64,000 bases of DNA from a phage: sequence record PZ379176.1; one strand, given 5' to 3'. Both the position numbers and the translations under genes were made by a program. The notes beneath the pieces are model-generated. The model had not been told where the DNA came from and searched no databases. It worked only from the letters and a program-made list of their open reading frames with translations. Below, piece by piece: positions 8,493 through 63,661 of this stretch. Positions within the stretch are counted from its first letter, which is position 1, and each line of letters begins with the position of its first letter.

Positions 8493-9305
8493 ATGAAAGC
8501 ATTTGCATTGTCAGCTATTCTAGTTTTATCTGCCATTAGTGCCCCATCCTTTGCTCATTCTGACAAATGCTCACACTCTAAACAGTGTGAAGTCCAGCAG
8601 GGGCCGAAAGGTGATAAAGGAGAACAGGGTATTCAAGGCGAACAAGGTCCGAAAGGTGACAAGGGTGATCGCGGAGAGCAGGGCTTAAAAGGTGATACTG
8701 GATCGGCTGGCATCAATGGTAAAGATGGCATCAATGGTAAAGATGGCATTGATGGTAAAGATGGCATTGATGGTAAAGATGGCATCAATGGTAAAGATGG
8801 CATCAATGGTAAAGATGGCATTGATGGTAAAGATGGCATTGATGGTAAAGATGGCGCTCAAGGTGAAAAAGGTGATTCTGGTGCAGATGGTAAGAAAGGC
8901 GAAACTGGCCTAACTGGTGCAGCAGGTTTGAATGGCGTTGACGGATTAAATGGCAAAAATGGTAAAGATGCAGATATGTCTGCCGTTAATGCTAACGCCA
9001 AATCTATCAAAGCTCTGGAACAATCCACCAACAAACGTTTTGCTTCTTTGCAAAAACAAGTAGACCGTAACCGTGATCATGCCTCTGCTGGTATTTCTGG
9101 CGTGGCTGCAATGGCTAACATCCCGCAAGTAAGTCAAGGATCTGCTTTCTCTGTTGGTGCTGGGGTAGGTGCTTACGATGGTGAATCTGCTCTTGCTATT
9201 GGTGTTAGTGCTCGTTTCAATGAAAACGTAGTAACTAAAGCATCAGTGGCAATGACTTCAGAGAGTGACGCTGTTCTGGGCGCTGGTGTAAGTTACGAGT
9301 GGTAA
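8493..9305 (+). CDS. secreted collagen-like repeat protein with YadA-like C-terminal anchor
   Basis: Signal-like N-terminus MKAFALSAILVLSAISAPSFA; long Gly-X-Y tract (GPKGDKGEQG...GINGKDGIDGKDG...); C-terminus ends GAGVSYEW, resembling trimeric-autotransporter anchors. Confidence 0.7.
   Translation: MKAFALSAILVLSAISAPSFAHSDKCSHSKQCEVQQGPKGDKGEQGIQGEQGPKGDKGDRGEQGLKGDTGSAGINGKDGINGKDGIDGKDGIDGKDGINGKDGINGKDGIDGKDGIDGKDGAQGEKGDSGADGKKGETGLTGAAGLNGVDGLNGKNGKDADMSAVNANAKSIKALEQSTNKRFASLQKQVDRNRDHASAGISGVAAMANIPQVSQGSAFSVGAGVGAYDGESALAIGVSARFNENVVTKASVAMTSESDAVLGAGVSYEW
8709..8852 (+). repeat. eight tandem 18-nt repeats (GGCAT[C/T][A/G]ATGGTAAAGAT) inside the collagen-like gene
   Basis: Direct reading: units alternate ATCAAT and ATTGAT in pairs, encoding GINGKD/GIDGKD. 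Confidence 0.9.
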
Positions 9306-13099: not shown

Positions 13100-13399
13100 A
13101 TGAGTTGGGGTGGTGTAATATCCTTAATCTGTATCTTCCTTGTCTGCATAGCCCTTACAGGCTGCGTACAGAGCCGTCCTGATGGATGGTGTGCAGTAGC
13201 AGTGGAAGGTGTTTGTGTTTCTCGCTGGTATAAGGGTGAGAAGATTCCTTCTGGTGAAATTGATATGCGATGGAACGGAGCAACCTGTTCTAATGCTAAC
13301 CCTTCTATCAACGAAGAGAAGTCTACGCCAGACAATGTTGTGATTGATACAGCGTTGTGGTGTGGTGGCTCTGTAACAACAACCGGTAAGGAGTGGTGA
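13100..13399 (+). CDS. predicted lipoprotein
   Basis: SD AGGAGG; signal peptide ending in lipobox-like LTGC (MSWGGVISLICIFLVCIALTGCVQS). Confidence 0.6.
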   Translation: MSWGGVISLICIFLVCIALTGCVQSRPDGWCAVAVEGVCVSRWYKGEKIPSGEIDMRWNGATCSNANPSINEEKSTPDNVVIDTALWCGGSVTTTGKEW

Positions 13400-13838: not shown

Positions 13839-14012
13839 ATGAGCTGTTATGGTGGCGGTGAAGTGTGTGATGACGACGACATGGAATCCAATGGTACATG
13901 CCCTGACTGTGGGTGTGAGACATTTGATGGAGTGTCAGTATACCCTGCCTGTAGTTACTCACCAGTGATCTGTAAAACATGTGGAGATCAACCTTGTGAC
14001 CAGTCTTGTTAG
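13839..14012 (+). CDS. small Cys-rich protein (57 aa)
   Basis: SD AAGGAG; 11 Cys; below ORF-track cut-off. Confidence 0.35.
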   Translation: MSCYGGGEVCDDDDMESNGTCPDCGCETFDGVSVYPACSYSPVICKTCGDQPCDQSC

Positions 14013-14013
14013 T

Positions 14014-14238
14014 ATGTTAATAGCCTATCTGATAGGATCAGTAGTATCAGGTGTTCTGATTAAGATTATAGATGTTAAAGGTAATCAGTGTTTCAGAGGT
14101 TGGGATGGTGAGCCAGACCTCGGAAAGATAGCAGCTATGGTTTTCTTGTGGCCTATTATTGCTGTACTATTTATAGCACTCGTATCATGGGCTGCTCTTT
14201 GGGATTTCATCCTTCCTAACAAAAAGTATGAGGACTAA
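14014..14238 (+). CDS. small membrane protein (two hydrophobic helices)
   Basis: ORF track frame; ATG at 14014. Confidence 0.45.
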   Translation: MLIAYLIGSVVSGVLIKIIDVKGNQCFRGWDGEPDLGKIAAMVFLWPIIAVLFIALVSWAALWDFILPNKKYED

Positions 14239-33098: not shown

Positions 33099-33278
33099 AT
33101 GTTATCAGCAATCGTATGGGGTATTTGGGCTATCTTTATCGGTGGTGGTATTTATTGGGCTTCTGGTAAGCTTATTGAAGAAACTCCTGATAAGAAAGGT
33201 GAGATTCAAACAGCATCAACCATCATGGTTATCGTAGCTGTTGTTATCCCATTCCTGCTTCACCTCCTGACTGCATAA
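33099..33278 (+). CDS. small membrane protein (59 aa, two hydrophobic segments)
   Basis: ATG after AAGGA; below track cut-off. Confidence 0.3.
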   Translation: MLSAIVWGIWAIFIGGGIYWASGKLIEETPDKKGEIQTASTIMVIVAVVIPFLLHLLTA

Positions 33279-35100: not shown

Positions 35101-35297
35101 GCGTAGTTTATGTTCTAGAAAGATACGCTGAAGATCACAACAGTATTGTTGCCATATTTAAACATGCCCCGGATGTTGAGGACATTTTGAATGTGACTCA
35201 CTTAACTGATGTTGATAAAATCAAAGACCTCATCAGGAATGACAATGCCCACATAGGTGACTCTCTGTGGTCTCTTACTGAATGGACATTGTGGTGA
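35097..35297 (+). CDS. hypothetical small protein
   Basis: ORF track; overlap. Confidence 0.4.
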   Translation: MSVVYVLERYAEDHNSIVAIFKHAPDVEDILNVTHLTDVDKIKDLIRNDNAHIGDSLWSLTEWTLW

Positions 35298-35479
35298 AGT
35301 GCTCTAAATGTGAAGGAACAAACCTTCATTTAAGTAACAAGGTTATCAGAGAGCTTGCTAAAGGCTCTCCAACCAAAGGGAAGAACAAACGATTTACTAA
35401 CGTCAGGGTTTATACAGCAATCTGTAAAGACTGCTTAACTACTGAGTGTCATTACGAAGAAATTGGAGAGCGTAAATGA
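35282..35479 (+). CDS. small zinc-ribbon-like protein
   Basis: CSKCEG...CKDC. Confidence 0.4.
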   Translation: MDIVVKCSKCEGTNLHLSNKVIRELAKGSPTKGKNKRFTNVRVYTAICKDCLTTECHYEEIGERK

Positions 35480-36213
35480 GTCGTCGTCAATCACGGAAAG
35501 AATCACGGAAAGACCTTCGTCGGGAAGCACTTGTTACTCGTAAAGGTAAGCGAGAGTATGAAGAGGTGGTTTTAGCAAAGCCTGTAGTCCCTCAGAACCA
35601 GTTTCAGTCTGAGCTACTCAATGCTATTAAGACTAAACAAGTTGTGTTCACAGACGCTCCTGCGGGCTGTGGTAAGACCTTTGTAATCACTTCCACAGTT
35701 ATTGATGCACTGAAGAGCGGTAAGATTCAGAAGATCATTCTGAGTCGCCCTTCGGTTGGCATGGGCAACTCTCTTGGGTTACTTCCGGGAGGAATGCGTG
35801 AGAAGTTTGAACCATACCTGATGCCTATCATTGATGTTATTACTCAGCGATATGGTAAGGGATTCTATGAATGCCAAATCGGAAATGGTAACATTGAGTT
35901 TGTACCTCTGGAATATCTCCGTGGTCGTTCTTTCAATGATGCTATTGTTATTGTTGATGAGTTCCAGAACACAACTAAGGATGAAGCCTTCTCCATCATG
36001 ACTCGATTGGGAGAAACCTCTCAATTGTTCTGTATGGGTGATACAAACCAGCATGATATGCGTGGTCGCGAGAGTGGTCTAACTTGGGCTACTAACTTTA
36101 TTGATGAACACGATCTGTATGAGTTTGCTGAGATTGTAGATGGTGAATCAGATGATATTGTTCGTTCTGGTTTCTGTAAGGCGATTGTTAAAGCAATGGA
36201 AAAGAAAGCTTAA
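35476..36213 (+). CDS. phoH: PhoH-like P-loop ATPase
   Basis: Walker A APAGCGKTF and downstream IVDEFQN / MGDTNQ motifs. Confidence 0.75.
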   Translation: MSRRQSRKESRKDLRREALVTRKGKREYEEVVLAKPVVPQNQFQSELLNAIKTKQVVFTDAPAGCGKTFVITSTVIDALKSGKIQKIILSRPSVGMGNSLGLLPGGMREKFEPYLMPIIDVITQRYGKGFYECQIGNGNIEFVPLEYLRGRSFNDAIVIVDEFQNTTKDEAFSIMTRLGETSQLFCMGDTNQHDMRGRESGLTWATNFIDEHDLYEFAEIVDGESDDIVRSGFCKAIVKAMEKKA

Positions 36214-42084: not shown

Positions 42085-42244
42085 CTCTGAGAAAAAGAAG
42101 ATCTCAGTATTTAAAGAACCTGTAGTTTATAAAGACTCTATCAGAGATCAATATAATGAGATGTTAAAGAAACAAGCTGATTCTAATCTTCGTTATCAGA
42201 GGATAATAGAACAAACTAACTTTAAAGGTTTACTTGAATGGTAA
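42068..42244 (+). CDS. hypothetical small protein
   Basis: ATG at 42068 in track frame. Confidence 0.3.
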   Translation: MDVLSNSEKKKISVFKEPVVYKDSIRDQYNEMLKKQADSNLRYQRIIEQTNFKGLLEW

Positions 42245-42345: not shown

Positions 42346-42592
42346 TTAATATTCTTTTAAATAGAGAATCAAAGTCCCTAGGAGTCCCTACAACCTAAAT
42401 CAAGGATTCCTTAATTCTCTATTTTTATCTCGCAGGTGGCTCCTGCCCTTCGGTACTTGCAAGGGATTCTGTGAATTGCCCAATATACAAGCCTGCAATA
42501 ACTTTATCAGCTATACAATATATACATTACTAGTGTGTTATATCTACTACCAAAGATACTTATATTATATAGTACTCTTATCGGTATAAGCG

Positions 42593-42601
42593 TAATGTAT
42601 A
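42593..42601 (+). promoter_or_regulatory. TAATGTATA motif (candidate phage-specific promoter element)
   Basis: Exact 9-mer 60 nt upstream of ATG 42661; inverted copy at 42521-42529. Confidence 0.4.
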
Positions 42602-42660
42602 CTATACATAACCGCTCAAAGAGAGCAACAATCTTTCAAATTAAATAAGGAAATTAAAAT

Positions 42661-43407
42661 ATGTCTATGATTCCAACTATCGCAACTGCTTCCCGTAAAT
42701 CCAACTACGATGTAATCCCTGATGGTGAATACGAAGCACGTATCGTTCGTGTAGTAGGTTTGGGTGTTCACAATCGTGACCCTTGGATTGACCCGAAGAC
42801 CAAAGCAGTAACTCCTAAGAATCCGGCTTTCCGTATGGATTTAGCTTTCGAGCTGATTGGTGTTGATGCTACTGGTAAAGATTCCGATGGTAAGGCATTA
42901 GAACCACGTCCAGCTTGCCAGTTCAAGAGCTATGATGTAAACCCACGAGCTAAGAACTCTGGTATTCTTGATCTTTGCAAAATGATTGACCCAAGTATTC
43001 AAGCACTGAAAGGTGATCTGTCTTGGTTCAAGGATGTTCTGTTAGGTCAGCCTGTTAACATTCTGGTTAACTCTTATACTAACAAATCTGGTGAAGTTAA
43101 AAACTCCATCAAGACCATTTCTCCAATCCCAACCAAATATCGTGCAGCAGTTGGTGAAGCTCGTAGTCCTCTGGTATTCTTCGAACCGTATGCTGAAACC
43201 GATGAGAACGTAGCATCCTATCAACTGATGTTCCCGTTCCAGCGCAACCTGCTTACTCAAGCTAATGACGCTAAGAACATGCCTCTGGCTGGTCGTGAAA
43301 TTACTCGTGCTTCTGAAACAGAGCAGAAAGAAGCTACTCCTTCAATCCCTACGATTGATAAAGAGCCTGCTTCTACTTACGAAGACGACAACGATAGCCC
43401 ATTCTAA
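42661..43407 (+). CDS. hypothetical abundant-type protein; possible ssDNA-binding protein
   Basis: Acidic C-terminal tail ending in Phe (EDDNDSPF), reminiscent of the T7 gp2.5 tail; core not recognisable by eye. Confidence 0.3.
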   Translation: MSMIPTIATASRKSNYDVIPDGEYEARIVRVVGLGVHNRDPWIDPKTKAVTPKNPAFRMDLAFELIGVDATGKDSDGKALEPRPACQFKSYDVNPRAKNSGILDLCKMIDPSIQALKGDLSWFKDVLLGQPVNILVNSYTNKSGEVKNSIKTISPIPTKYRAAVGEARSPLVFFEPYAETDENVASYQLMFPFQRNLLTQANDAKNMPLAGREITRASETEQKEATPSIPTIDKEPASTYEDDNDSPF

Positions 43408-43428
43408 TAACTCTCCTTGTTATAGCTT

Positions 43429-43452
43429 AGCCACCTCCGGGTGGCTTTTTTC
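43429..43452 (+). terminator. rho-independent terminator
   Basis: AGCCACC-tccg-GGTGGCT then TTTTTT. Confidence 0.55.
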
Positions 43453-43464
43453 GTTGGAGACAAC

Positions 43465-43815
43465 ATGCAAAACACATTAAGTGATAACTTAGGGTTTATC
43501 GTTTTCTCAGCTCTTGTATTCTTTGGTGGTATGAAGTTTAACGAATATCAAACAGACAGCAGTAATCTGGACAAAGAGAAGCACCAGCAAGAGTTAGAGA
43601 TTGAAAGAAGTAGAGCAGCTGATGAAGTTGCTCAGAGAGTTCTTACCGGTTTATCTAACTGGAAGAAGAACACGGAAACCGTTTATAAAGAGATGCATTA
43701 TGAGAAAACTAAACCAGTTTTTTATAATGTCTGCGCTAGTGATGAGTATGTCAGCTTGTTCAACGAGCGACAACAGCAGGCAATCAATGCCCTTACCAAC
43801 AAACCTAAAAGCTGA
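43465..43815 (+). CDS. i-spanin (Rz-like)
   Basis: N-terminal TM helix then coiled-coil; contains the start of an out-of-frame lipoprotein ORF. Confidence 0.55.
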   Translation: MQNTLSDNLGFIVFSALVFFGGMKFNEYQTDSSNLDKEKHQQELEIERSRAADEVAQRVLTGLSNWKKNTETVYKEMHYEKTKPVFYNVCASDEYVSLFNERQQQAINALTNKPKS

Positions 43816-43959
43816 ATGTAGGGTTGACCTGCCTCTTTTAGAAAGTGCTCAAGGAAAAGCATTAGCCACTACGTTGGAGTGGTATCAGGACCAGTACACA
43901 GAATGTGCTGCCAATCACAATGGATTGTTAGAAGCTCTGAAAGAGCGTGGAATAGAATA

Positions 43960-43960
<1 letters not shown>
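43700..43960 (+). CDS. o-spanin (Rz1-like lipoprotein), overlapping the Rz 3-prime end
   Basis: Signal peptide ending SAC then Pro-rich mature region; begins inside the Rz ORF in another frame. Confidence 0.55.
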
Positions 43961-45452
<1,492 letters not shown>

Positions 45453-56175: not shown

Positions 56176-56958
56176 TTACTTTACACCAATGCTAGCCAAA
56201 CGTCTGAGCACTGCTTGTGTTTGTGGACTGTACTGAGAACCTGCTGCATGTGGTGCACTTGCCCTCTGAACTGTTTGAGAAGTCGGAGGTTTACCAGCAA
56301 GCATAGCAGCTACACCTAATACTGCATTACCAAAGTTCTGTTGAGGCTTCTGATCTTCCCCTTCCTGCACTTCATCAGAGTAAAACTCTACTGGATTTCC
56401 TCCTAAAGCACCTGTCTTAGAAGCAGTAATGTCTGCCTGAGTTGGAGCTTGTGCGGCTTTCTCTCTATCTAACAAGTCAGGACTAAACTGATTGACTGGT
56501 TGAACAGCTTGCAAAGCTCCAACAGGGTTAGCAATCTGAGAAGCTGCATCACCATAGAAAGGAAGAAAGTGTTTATTGTTCATGGAGTCAAGAGCTTGTG
56601 GAGTAAATCCCTTTTTACCAGCGAACATTTGCTTAGCACCACCGATACCTTCTGAGTAACCAACCATTGCTTTCTTAACATCACCATTAAAAGCCTTTAA
56701 GTTATCTCGAATATAACGAGCACCCATATCAATATTCTTTGCTGGGTCAAGTCTGTCTTCTAGTTTGTAGCCGTAGTCTTTAGCCAACCCTTTACTGATC
56801 TGCATTAAACCTACAGGACCAGTTCCAGAAGCCACTGTAGGACGACCACTAGACTCCCTTTGGATTACAGCATGAATCAAAGCAGCAGGAATCCCATACT
56901 TCTTTGAAGCCTGTTGAACCATTGGGTCTAGTTCTTCAATACCCATCTTAATTGCCAT
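56176..56958 (-). CDS. soluble lytic transglycosylase (SLT) domain protein
   Basis: IHAVIQRESSGRP...GLMQISKGLAKDYGY matches the SLT catalytic-Glu region. Confidence 0.7.
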   Translation of the reverse strand: MAIKMGIEELDPMVQQASKKYGIPAALIHAVIQRESSGRPTVASGTGPVGLMQISKGLAKDYGYKLEDRLDPAKNIDMGARYIRDNLKAFNGDVKKAMVGYSEGIGGAKQMFAGKKGFTPQALDSMNNKHFLPFYGDAASQIANPVGALQAVQPVNQFSPDLLDREKAAQAPTQADITASKTGALGGNPVEFYSDEVQEGEDQKPQQNFGNAVLGVAAMLAGKPPTSQTVQRASAPHAAGSQYSPQTQAVLRRLASIGVK

Positions 56959-62857: not shown

Positions 62858-63349
62858 TTAATATTTACCTTCGGTATAAAGATTAGCTTCTGCAACTCTT
62901 CTGTTATGAAGACCCTGACTTCTCTGCTTCTCTCCCTTGACCGTTATTTTATCCCAACGAAGAAATTCGGAATAAACATCCCCCTTAACATCTCCATTGA
63001 TTACTTTCCTTAACTTAGATGTGCTCAAAGCACCACTGCCAACGTTGAAGTTGAAAGAAGTGAGTGCATCAAACTCATGAACTAGCAAAGGAACCTTTAT
63101 GTTCTTCTGAGTAGCACGAACAGAGTCTTGTGTGTCTCTATCTAGCAGAGCTAGACAATCCTCTATAGAATACGTTAATCCTTGTCTAACCGGATAACCA
63201 TTCATATCACGCGTAGCCCCTACACATATAGTCCAGATACCTGCGGAATCTTTATAAGCCTTGGTTCTCATACCCTCATGCTTCATGATGAATTCCATTC
63301 CAGCTGGGCTTAAGTTTAGTTGTACAGGTGGCAATGCGGCGTTATCCAT
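62858..63349 (-). CDS. GH24 (T4-lysozyme-like) lysozyme
   Basis: E-x8-D-x5-T triad in HEGMRTKAYKDSAGIWTICVG; no signal sequence. Confidence 0.75.
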   Translation of the reverse strand: MDNAALPPVQLNLSPAGMEFIMKHEGMRTKAYKDSAGIWTICVGATRDMNGYPVRQGLTYSIEDCLALLDRDTQDSVRATQKNIKVPLLVHEFDALTSFNFNVGSGALSTSKLRKVINGDVKGDVYSEFLRWDKITVKGEKQRSQGLHNRRVAEANLYTEGKY

Positions 63350-63378: not shown

Positions 63379-63597
63379 TTAAGGTAGTATCTTTCTCAGA
63401 GCGTTAGATTCAGCATCAGGACAAATAACAACTAGATTATTTTGAATGGTTCGCTGCTTACATTGAGAACTAAGTTTCTCTACTGGAGCAGGTGCTGTAA
63501 CTAATGGATGAACTGCGCTTACAGGGATTGCAGTAGATACCACGACTCCTGCACCTAAACAAACTAAACCATATACAGCTTGTTTCATCATTTTCAT
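63379..63597 (-). CDS. small membrane-anchored or secreted protein (72 aa), possibly lysis-associated
   Basis: Single N-terminal hydrophobic segment; immediately upstream of lysozyme. Confidence 0.4.
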   Translation of the reverse strand: MKMMKQAVYGLVCLGAGVVVSTAIPVSAVHPLVTAPAPVEKLSSQCKQRTIQNNLVVICPDAESNALRKILP

Positions 63598-63661
63598 TTG
63601 AGTGTCTCCTATAAATTAACCTCTTGGGATATATTAGTTTCATTACCTATTCACTAGTTTA

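Follow-up and report, generated by a model that had tools for sequence, protein, structure and literature searches.

A predicted overlapped two-component spanin of Kuravirus encoded far from the endolysin and the putative holin

The overlapping gene pair and its surroundings

Two overlapping genes for small envelope-targeted proteins, predicted to be the inner-membrane (i-spanin) and outer-membrane (o-spanin) subunits of a spanin, lie on the plus strand at 43465-43815 and 43700-43960 of the window, that is, the whole 64,000-nucleotide stretch of phage DNA analysed here (sequence record PZ379176.1). The features of the locus, in order of position, are as follows.

42593-42601, plus strand: promoter element of the gp36 holoenzyme, exact match (TAATGTATA), with the gene-40 homologue beginning 60 nt further on
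42661-43407, plus strand: gene-40 homologue, 248 aa, PHROG 6599 (function unknown), with an acidic C-terminal tail (...YEDDNDSPF)
43429-43452, plus strand: hairpin resembling an intrinsic terminator, with a 4-nt loop on a 7-bp stem (5 of the pairs G-C) and TTTTTT on its 3' side
43456-43459, plus strand: Shine-Dalgarno sequence GGAG of the i-spanin gene, 5 nt ahead of its ATG
43465-43815, plus strand: predicted i-spanin gene, 116 aa, homologue of phiEco32 gp39 (ATG start, PHROG match, hydropathy, homologue alignment)
43489-43533, plus strand: coding segment of the predicted i-spanin transmembrane helix LGFIVFSALVFFGGM (hydropathy)
43700-43960, plus strand: predicted o-spanin gene, 86 aa (67 aa mature), homologue of phiEco32 gp38 with corrected start (ATG, lipoprotein signal, PHROG match)
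43700-43759, plus strand: predicted o-spanin signal peptide and lipobox Cys codon (MRKLNQFFIMSALVMSMSA followed by C; signal pattern)
43700-43815, plus strand: dual-coding overlap of 116 nt, comprising the last 38 i-spanin codons and the first 38 o-spanin codons
43960-44400, plus strand: macro-domain (Appr-1-p processing) gene (PF01661, E 8e-11)
44372-44401: sigma-70-like promoter with 11/12 matches, 3' of the macro-domain gene and followed by the gp36 homologue

The window derives from a Kuravirus, a phiEco32-like podophage, and its best match is Shigella phage ShigP1, with 97% identity over 24 kb, so that it represents either a new isolate or a mosaic within a well-sampled genus. In a nucleotide comparison with a 1.5-kb query covering 43000-44500, ShigP1 was 100% identical and Escherichia phage phiEco32 98.3% identical, and the 98 matching phage records all belonged to E. 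coli/Shigella Kuravirus podophages of the subfamily Gordonclarkvirinae. Open reading frames of at least 150 aa are arranged in two convergent blocks, one on the plus strand extending to about 47.9 kb and the other on the minus strand from 47965 to the end.

The predicted i-spanin has a single hydrophobic segment at residues ~9-23 and none elsewhere in a hydropathy scan. Its hydrophobic core is short (~15 residues; best 19-residue Kyte-Doolittle mean 1.55), and in the annotation of phage Paul, whose i-spanin is identical, TMpred places the transmembrane domain at residues 8-23. An N-terminal helix spanning residues 3-25 also appears in a single-sequence AlphaFold2 model, the models of the two subunits being of low confidence (pLDDT 56 and 59). 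The periplasmic domain is mostly helical and contains one conserved cysteine, C90, in the motif FYNVCxxDxYxxxFNE. Along its whole length, the protein aligns with PHROG 1152 ('Rz-like spanin'; E 2.7e-37). A GTG at 43441 was rejected as an alternative start, as it falls inside the terminator hairpin and the ATG and GGAG are kept in relatives.

Relative to the first gene, the second is read in the +1 frame; it shares 116 nt with the first and runs for 145 nt beyond the stop codon of the latter, as had been described in the original prediction of an Rz1-like frame that starts inside the Rz frame and extends past it; the arrangement is that of the 'overlapped' class. The N-terminus of the encoded protein, MRKLNQFFIMSALVMSMSAC, has the organisation of a lipoprotein signal, in which a basic n-region and a hydrophobic core lead to the lipobox MSAC, with the lipidation residue at Cys20 and a serine at position +2 (MRKLNQFFIMSALVMSMSA followed by CST). 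Read from the sequence, the +2 serine is an outer-membrane sorting residue, with no inner-membrane retention signal. Lipoprotein signal prediction had been put forward as a check and its outcome was favourable: when all ATG-started open reading frames of at least 50 aa were scanned in six frames, a strict lipoprotein-signal pattern picked out the o-spanin frame and nothing else in the 64-kb window, against a mean of 0.07 matches in mononucleotide shuffles of the window, and the identical Paul protein carries a LipoP SpII site at 19/20 with a score of 18.03 in that phage's annotation. After the signal come a flexible linker and a helix at the C-terminus; Cys69 is kept in all compared homologues and Cys40 in some only. 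The best PHROG match is to family 2425, which is labelled 'unknown function' (E 3.5e-27), with a weak match to PHROG 456 'Rz-like spanin' (E 1.3e-3). The Shine-Dalgarno sequence ahead of 43700 is weak (AAGAG).

Selection on the two frames was assessed by comparing the window with TH43 and HC-25922, relatives that are ~80% identical. In the part coding for the i-spanin only, codon position 3 takes 27 of 48 differences from TH43 and 26 of 50 from HC-25922, and in the part coding for the o-spanin only, position 3 of the o-spanin codons takes 27 of 42 and 25 of 44, respectively. Divergence within the overlap is 6.9-10.3%, compared with 22-30% on either side, a drop of about threefold. The position-3 bias in each unique part and the lower divergence of the overlap together indicate that both frames are coding, as predicted for dual coding; both are under purifying selection, and an overlapping pair of this kind is far beyond chance.

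Relatives, earlier descriptions and the spanin assignment

The pair has already been catalogued and is conserved throughout the genus. Kongari et al. 2018 (PMC6139136) list phiEco32 as having an overlapped ('ovl') two-component spanin, with the i-spanin at 35417-35768, the o-spanin at 35272-35533, an overlap of 116 nt, protein lengths of 116 and 86 aa and a mature o-spanin of 67 aa; the overlap and the protein lengths in the window equal these values. The same survey predicted 61% helix for the i-spanin periplasmic domain and 46% for the o-spanin, and placed the phiEco32 i-spanin in a 'JH2' family with Felix O1-like phages and the o-spanin in a separate four-member family consisting of NJ01, ECBP2, KBNP1711 and PhiEco32 (PMC6139136). 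The phiEco32 gp39/gp38 pair is the same system, with 10 differences over 480 compared nt of the spanin region, and gp036/gp035 of phage Paul, annotated as i-spanin/o-spanin by the Center for Phage Technology, are 100% identical in protein sequence. In both phages, as in the window, the two proteins have these lengths, the genes overlap by 116 nt, a terminator lies upstream of the pair and the macro-domain and sigma-factor genes lie downstream of it, with no difference of substance. The genome announcement of phage Paul does not mention lysis genes, and overlapping spanins, with a TMD at the N-terminus and a lipobox, are also described in a 2026 Kuravirus paper. The overlapped plus-strand pair originally proposed is in this way borne out by the identical Paul proteins and the phiEco32 entry of Kongari 2018.

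Beyond the genus, tblastn detected homologues of both subunits with ~28-41% identity in Felix O1-like myophages, Erwinia Kolesnikvirus, 9NA-like Sashavirus, Proteus Gorganvirus and others, many of them annotated as i-spanin/o-spanin; the Felix O1-like i-spanins are 31-34% identical, with E-values of about 1e-8. Six loci were extracted, and in every one the o-spanin start codon falls within the i-spanin gene and opens the +1 frame, the two genes overlapping by 107-164 nt; each of these o-spanins has a basic n-region, with the lipobox Cys as residue 20 or 21. The Felixounavirus, Kolesnikvirus, Sashavirus and Gorganvirus pairs therefore share with the window pair homology, the +1 overlap, the lipobox Cys and one invariant periplasmic cysteine per subunit, which the homologue alignment places in FYNVC...FNE of the i-spanin and in Y..C...N.L of the o-spanin. 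By analogy, these invariant cysteines are candidates for the disulfide links known in other spanins. The genomic setting of the family varies. In Ounavirinae, too, the pair is distant from a lysis cassette, with a homologous macro-domain gene coming after it, and in Felix O1-like phages it is found near rIIB. Sashavirus differs in having the pair within its holin-endolysin cassette: in the Center for Phage Technology annotation of Sashavirus Sergei, the homologous pair closes a holin/antiholin-endolysin-holin cassette, a position which ties this spanin family to lysis.

P2 LysB/LysC is the prototype of the overlapped class, in which, as here, the o-spanin gene opens within the i-spanin gene, in a different frame, and ends beyond it, and it likewise consists of an inner-membrane protein and an outer-membrane lipoprotein; no sequence similarity to it was detected, and the P2 pair belongs to the lysis cassette, whereas that of the window lies in the block opposite the endolysin. 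Lambda Rz/Rz1 is alike in predicted topology and in the roles of its subunits, pairing a type II protein of the inner membrane with a small lipoprotein of the outer membrane that is read from the +1 frame, and the lambda model of outer-membrane disruption after peptidoglycan degradation would also apply here. Lambda Rz1, however, is fully embedded in Rz, whereas the o-spanin of the window extends beyond the i-spanin stop, and the Rz1 periplasmic domain is unstructured, whereas the window protein is predicted to be ~46% helical. Spanin genes kilobases distant from the endolysin or holin gene also occur in T4 and in Proteus phage Privateer. The separated class has T4 as its prototype, with non-overlapping spanin genes, unlike the overlapping pair of the window. 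The lysis genes of T4 are scattered over the genome. In Proteus phage Privateer, the spanins are 12 kb from the endolysin, placed after structural genes and not in a middle cluster.

Against the description of two-component spanins in Summer 2007 and Kongari 2018, the locus displays an i-spanin with an N-terminal transmembrane helix, a lipoprotein o-spanin, overlapping genes and selection on both frames. On these localisation signals, this architecture and homology to other predicted spanins, 43465-43815 and 43700-43960 very probably encode the two-component spanin of Kuravirus. A Pfam scan of both proteins returned no Rz/Rz1 family up to an E-value of 1, with sub-threshold DUF matches only; membership of the lambda Rz/Rz1 family is therefore ruled out, and 'Rz/Rz1' as applied to this pair is a functional label. 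A literature search found no report on complex formation or lambda Rz/Rz1 complementation for this spanin sequence family.

Transcription context and the other lysis genes

In phiEco32, the late structural genes are oriented against the early and middle ones, and the middle cluster comprises the DNA polymerase, nucleotide-metabolism genes and the sigma factor gp36 (PMC8948821). The consensus for the gp36 holoenzyme is tAATGTAtA, and its promoters are located upstream of genes 6, 13, 26, 40, 58 and 68 (PMC8948821). The element at 42593-42601 corresponds to the published P40, heading an operon that includes the spanin genes (39 and 38); this P40 unit opens with the gene-40 homologue, the immediate upstream neighbour of the spanin pair. 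Motifs with up to one mismatch to the gp36 consensus are not enriched across the window (20 found, 20.45 expected), so that the P40 assignment rests on position and on the literature. Two one-mismatch motifs, TAATGTCTA at 43958 and TAATTTATA at 63610, were set aside as chance-level matches with mismatches in the core AATGTA. A sigma-70-like promoter hit at 43700-43728, within the i-spanin gene, was likewise discarded, promoter-like sites being rarer in the region (6) than in shuffles (9.2), as was a weak terminator-like site at 43818-43832, the regional terminator count being near expectation (3 against 1.9).

The terminator hairpin between gene 40 and the i-spanin start is annotated as a terminator in phage Paul, and the 58-nt spacer that includes GGAG is nearly invariant in relatives in which the flanking coding sequence is ~22% different. 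The hairpin probably attenuates transcription into the spanin genes. The spanins would then be middle-class products made by read-through of the attenuating terminator, a temporal class suggested by the cluster description and promoter list of PMC8948821. At the distal end of the pair, the ATG of the macro-domain gene shares a base with the TAA stop of the o-spanin, which suggests translational coupling of the two. The pair sits among middle, replication-type genes and not in a lysis cassette, a point against reading it as a spanin.

The endolysin, the putative holin and a second muralytic protein of the window are found at the following positions.

56176-56958: SLT-domain muralytic protein of the virion/injection module (PF01464, E 1.3e-23)
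62858-63349, minus strand: endolysin, 163 aa, GH24 phage lysozyme, homologue of phiEco32 gp17 (PF00959, E 3.7e-32)
63379-63597, minus strand: putative class III holin, 72 aa, single-pass, homologue of phiEco32 gp16 (PHROG 11161 'holin', E 2.3e-48)

The endolysin lies 18.9 kb from the o-spanin stop on the opposite strand, a separation found genus-wide. The claim that the only lysozyme is about 19 kb away on the other strand thus holds as to distance and strand, with the reservation that the SLT-domain protein, probably virion-associated, is also muralytic. The N-terminus of the endolysin is not hydrophobic (best 19-residue Kyte-Doolittle mean 0.82), which makes it probably soluble and holin-dependent. 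The 2026 paper called the endolysin SAR-type and reported that predictors give the holin homologue a signal peptide only and no TMD; the hydropathy scan of the window endolysin gave no support for a SAR domain.

It had also been stated that no canonical holin is evident near the spanins, where only a 35-aa hydrophobic peptide and, much further on, a 72-aa membrane protein were noted. Both frames are as described. The 35-aa peptide at 42238 is a gp41 homologue (PHROG 24970, unknown function), and nothing was found linking it to lysis. The 72-aa protein, however, adjoins the endolysin gene, 29 nt upstream and co-oriented, and its counterparts in relatives are annotated as 'holin' (in Paul as 'holin class III'); the 72-aa protein has one hydrophobic segment at residues 7-34 (Kyte-Doolittle mean 2.13) and is confined to Kuravirus-like phages, with 99 records. 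A conventional holin-endolysin pair is therefore present, its holin being putative, and only the spanins are displaced from it. The gp16 and gp17 homologues lie between tail-fibre genes, downstream of gene 13, and a late promoter has been mapped before gene 13; we infer that this promoter drives them. As first proposed, lysis functions are accordingly spread over both transcriptional blocks, with the spanins on the plus strand and the putative holin and the endolysin on the minus strand, and this layout holds throughout the genus.

Proposed mode of action and alternative readings

Under the general spanin model as in Kongari et al. 2018 (PMC6139136), the i-spanin would insert in the inner membrane by its one N-terminal helix, with the helical domain reaching into the periplasm, and the o-spanin, translated from its own +1-frame start inside the i-spanin gene, would be exported, lipidated on Cys20, cut by signal peptidase II and sorted via the +2 Ser to the inner leaflet of the outer membrane. 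The periplasmic domains would bind each other and the resulting complexes would span the periplasm through the peptidoglycan mesh. Given the position of the genes in the middle cluster, downstream of P40 and past the conserved terminator, the complexes would probably accumulate modestly and harmlessly, well before lysis. In the lambda model, spanins act only once the wall is degraded. If the same applies here, early or middle synthesis would be harmless and timing would be set by the late holin: the gp16-like holin would give the gp17-like endolysin access to the wall, the genes of both lying 19 kb away in the late block, and degradation of the wall would free the spanins to breach the outer membrane, a step for which the current model invokes membrane fusion. 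The analysis itself establishes the arrangement of the genes, their targeting signals, selection on each frame, kinship with curated spanin families and the genomic setting; complex formation, expression timing, terminator read-through and the lysis function are all parts of this proposal that we infer.

Two variants concern the wiring around the spanin and are, taken jointly, improbable. The terminator, together with pairing of CUCUCC (43411-43416, in the nearly invariant 58-nt spacer) with the Shine-Dalgarno sequence GGAGA of the i-spanin, may impose both attenuation and translational masking on a middle-class spanin, so that spanin output would be throttled. Instead of forming holes, the 72-aa 'holin' may be secreted or signal-anchored, in which case the trigger for release of the apparently soluble endolysin would have to be sought elsewhere, with candidates including the small two-TMD proteins at 13981-14238 and 33099-33278.

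It is very unlikely that the two genes encode a genuine inner-membrane protein and outer-membrane lipoprotein with a role outside lysis, such as superinfection exclusion or envelope remodelling in mid-infection. Such a role would fit the location of the pair in the middle cluster, near the sigma-factor and macro-domain genes and 19 kb from holin and endolysin, as well as the i-spanin, for which no coiled coil is predicted; the Kongari et al. 2018 tables list none for that of phiEco32, unlike lambda Rz (PMC6139136). However, homologues of both subunits end a canonical lysis cassette in Sashavirus, and the window has no other spanin candidate, yet the host is Gram-negative. Displacement of spanins is moreover documented, in the separated class of T4, in Privateer (12 kb) and near rIIB in Felix O1-like phages.

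That only the i-spanin-like gene is real, the frame at 43700 being a chance one or its true product a 57-aa protein from 43787 without a signal peptide, is the least credible alternative and can be dismissed: several public records do annotate only the short o-spanin form or nothing, and the Shine-Dalgarno sequence before 43700 is indeed weak, but the 29 codons upstream of 43787 hold a complete lipoprotein signal that is kept in ~30%-identical homologues and has no counterpart elsewhere in the window (0.07 in shuffles), and the overlap diverges by 7-10%, as dual coding predicts.

In RefSeq phiEco32 gp38 and in ShigP1_00076, the o-spanin start has been placed at 43787, an internal ATG, giving the 57-aa protein that lacks the signal, and this short form is an annotation error and not a biological difference. 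Errors of this kind are common: according to Kongari et al. (PMC6139136), o-spanins in overlapped or embedded architectures are commonly missed or misstarted, 196 not having been identified and 64 having been given wrong starts among 528 systems. The overlapped o-spanin can be recovered by reading the sequence alone, though several GenBank/RefSeq records truncate or omit it, and correct o-spanin starts serve the curation of phage-therapy genomes and the engineering of lysis timing; beyond annotation quality, the pair matters little. Within the genus, the spanin genes consistently fall in the middle cluster and those of the putative holin and the endolysin in the late one, a dispersed arrangement for which other phages offer precedents.

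Muralytic and membrane proteins beyond the spanin pair

Besides the annotated endolysin (62858-63349, minus strand), the following encoded proteins are predicted to act on the cell wall or to lie in or across the envelope:

56176-56958, minus strand: 260-aa protein with an SLT lytic transglycosylase domain (PF01464, E 1.3e-23), among the injection/virion genes
13981-14238, plus strand: 85-aa protein with two predicted transmembrane segments, early/middle block
33099-33278, plus strand: 59-aa protein with two predicted transmembrane segments, early/middle block
8493-9305, plus strand: ORF with a signal peptide, collagen triple-helix repeats (PF01391, E 6e-22) and a YadA-like membrane anchor (PF03895, E 2e-19), early region
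13100-13399, plus strand: 99-aa lipoprotein with lipobox LTGC (PF24052 'Phage lipoprotein family', E 1e-34), early region

Because of the SLT-domain protein, the endolysin is not the sole muralytic enzyme encoded in the window. The annotated 'holin' (63379-63597, minus strand), a putative Kuravirus holin, starts with basic residues; next comes a hydrophobic stretch of 23-28 residues, whose end, ...PVSA|V, looks like a signal-peptidase site. For the homologue of this protein, a signal peptide is all that a 2026 paper reports. The 85-aa and 59-aa proteins, neither of which had a match in Pfam, share a similar topology with class II holins and antiholins; both, however, are encoded in the early/middle block. 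The 8493-9305 product is a phage-encoded trimeric-autotransporter-like outer-membrane protein. The 13100-13399 product is a second lipoprotein besides the o-spanin, and the two are unrelated.

Gene 40 and the spacer preceding the i-spanin

The homologue of phiEco32 gene 40 (42661-43407, plus strand; PHROG 6599, unknown function) carries an acidic C-terminal tail, ...YEDDNDSPF, which recalls the C-termini of single-stranded-DNA-binding proteins, and the strong terminator 3' of this gene fits a product made in large amounts. The intergenic region between the gene 41 and gene 40 homologues contains motifs on both strands (42512-42529, minus; 42593-42611) that resemble the promoters used by the phiEco32 sigma factor gp36, with exact TAATGTATA at 42593 (plus) and 42521 (minus) and one-mismatch copies at 42512 and 42603 (both minus). 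The minus-strand copies point away from every annotated gene.

The 58-nt spacer separating gene 40 from the i-spanin (43408-43464, plus strand), which contains a terminator hairpin, is nearly invariant even in relatives that diverge by about 22% in the coding sequence on either side. In the predicted RNA fold, the i-spanin Shine-Dalgarno GGAGA (43456-43460) would pair with CUCUC (43412-43416) of the spacer.

The macro-domain gene and its neighbourhood in relatives

43960-44400, plus strand: macro-domain gene, next after the o-spanin

Within Kuravirus, the insertion of an HNH homing-endonuclease gene close to the spanin and macro-domain genes of SU10, KM01 and CHD5UKE1 splits their alignment to window positions 43000-44500, and in the related phage SU7 the match to the o-spanin starts only from residue 13. 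Homologues of the macro-domain gene (24-25% identity) were found in two loci that carry a homologous spanin pair, at 3781-4566 of L007 and 2778-3560 of L008 (E 3e-9 and 5e-6). In Erwinia Kolesnikvirus the homologue comes immediately after the homologous spanin pair; in Felix O1-like phages it lies four genes past that pair. This arrangement suggests a spanin and macro-domain block common to podophages and myophages.
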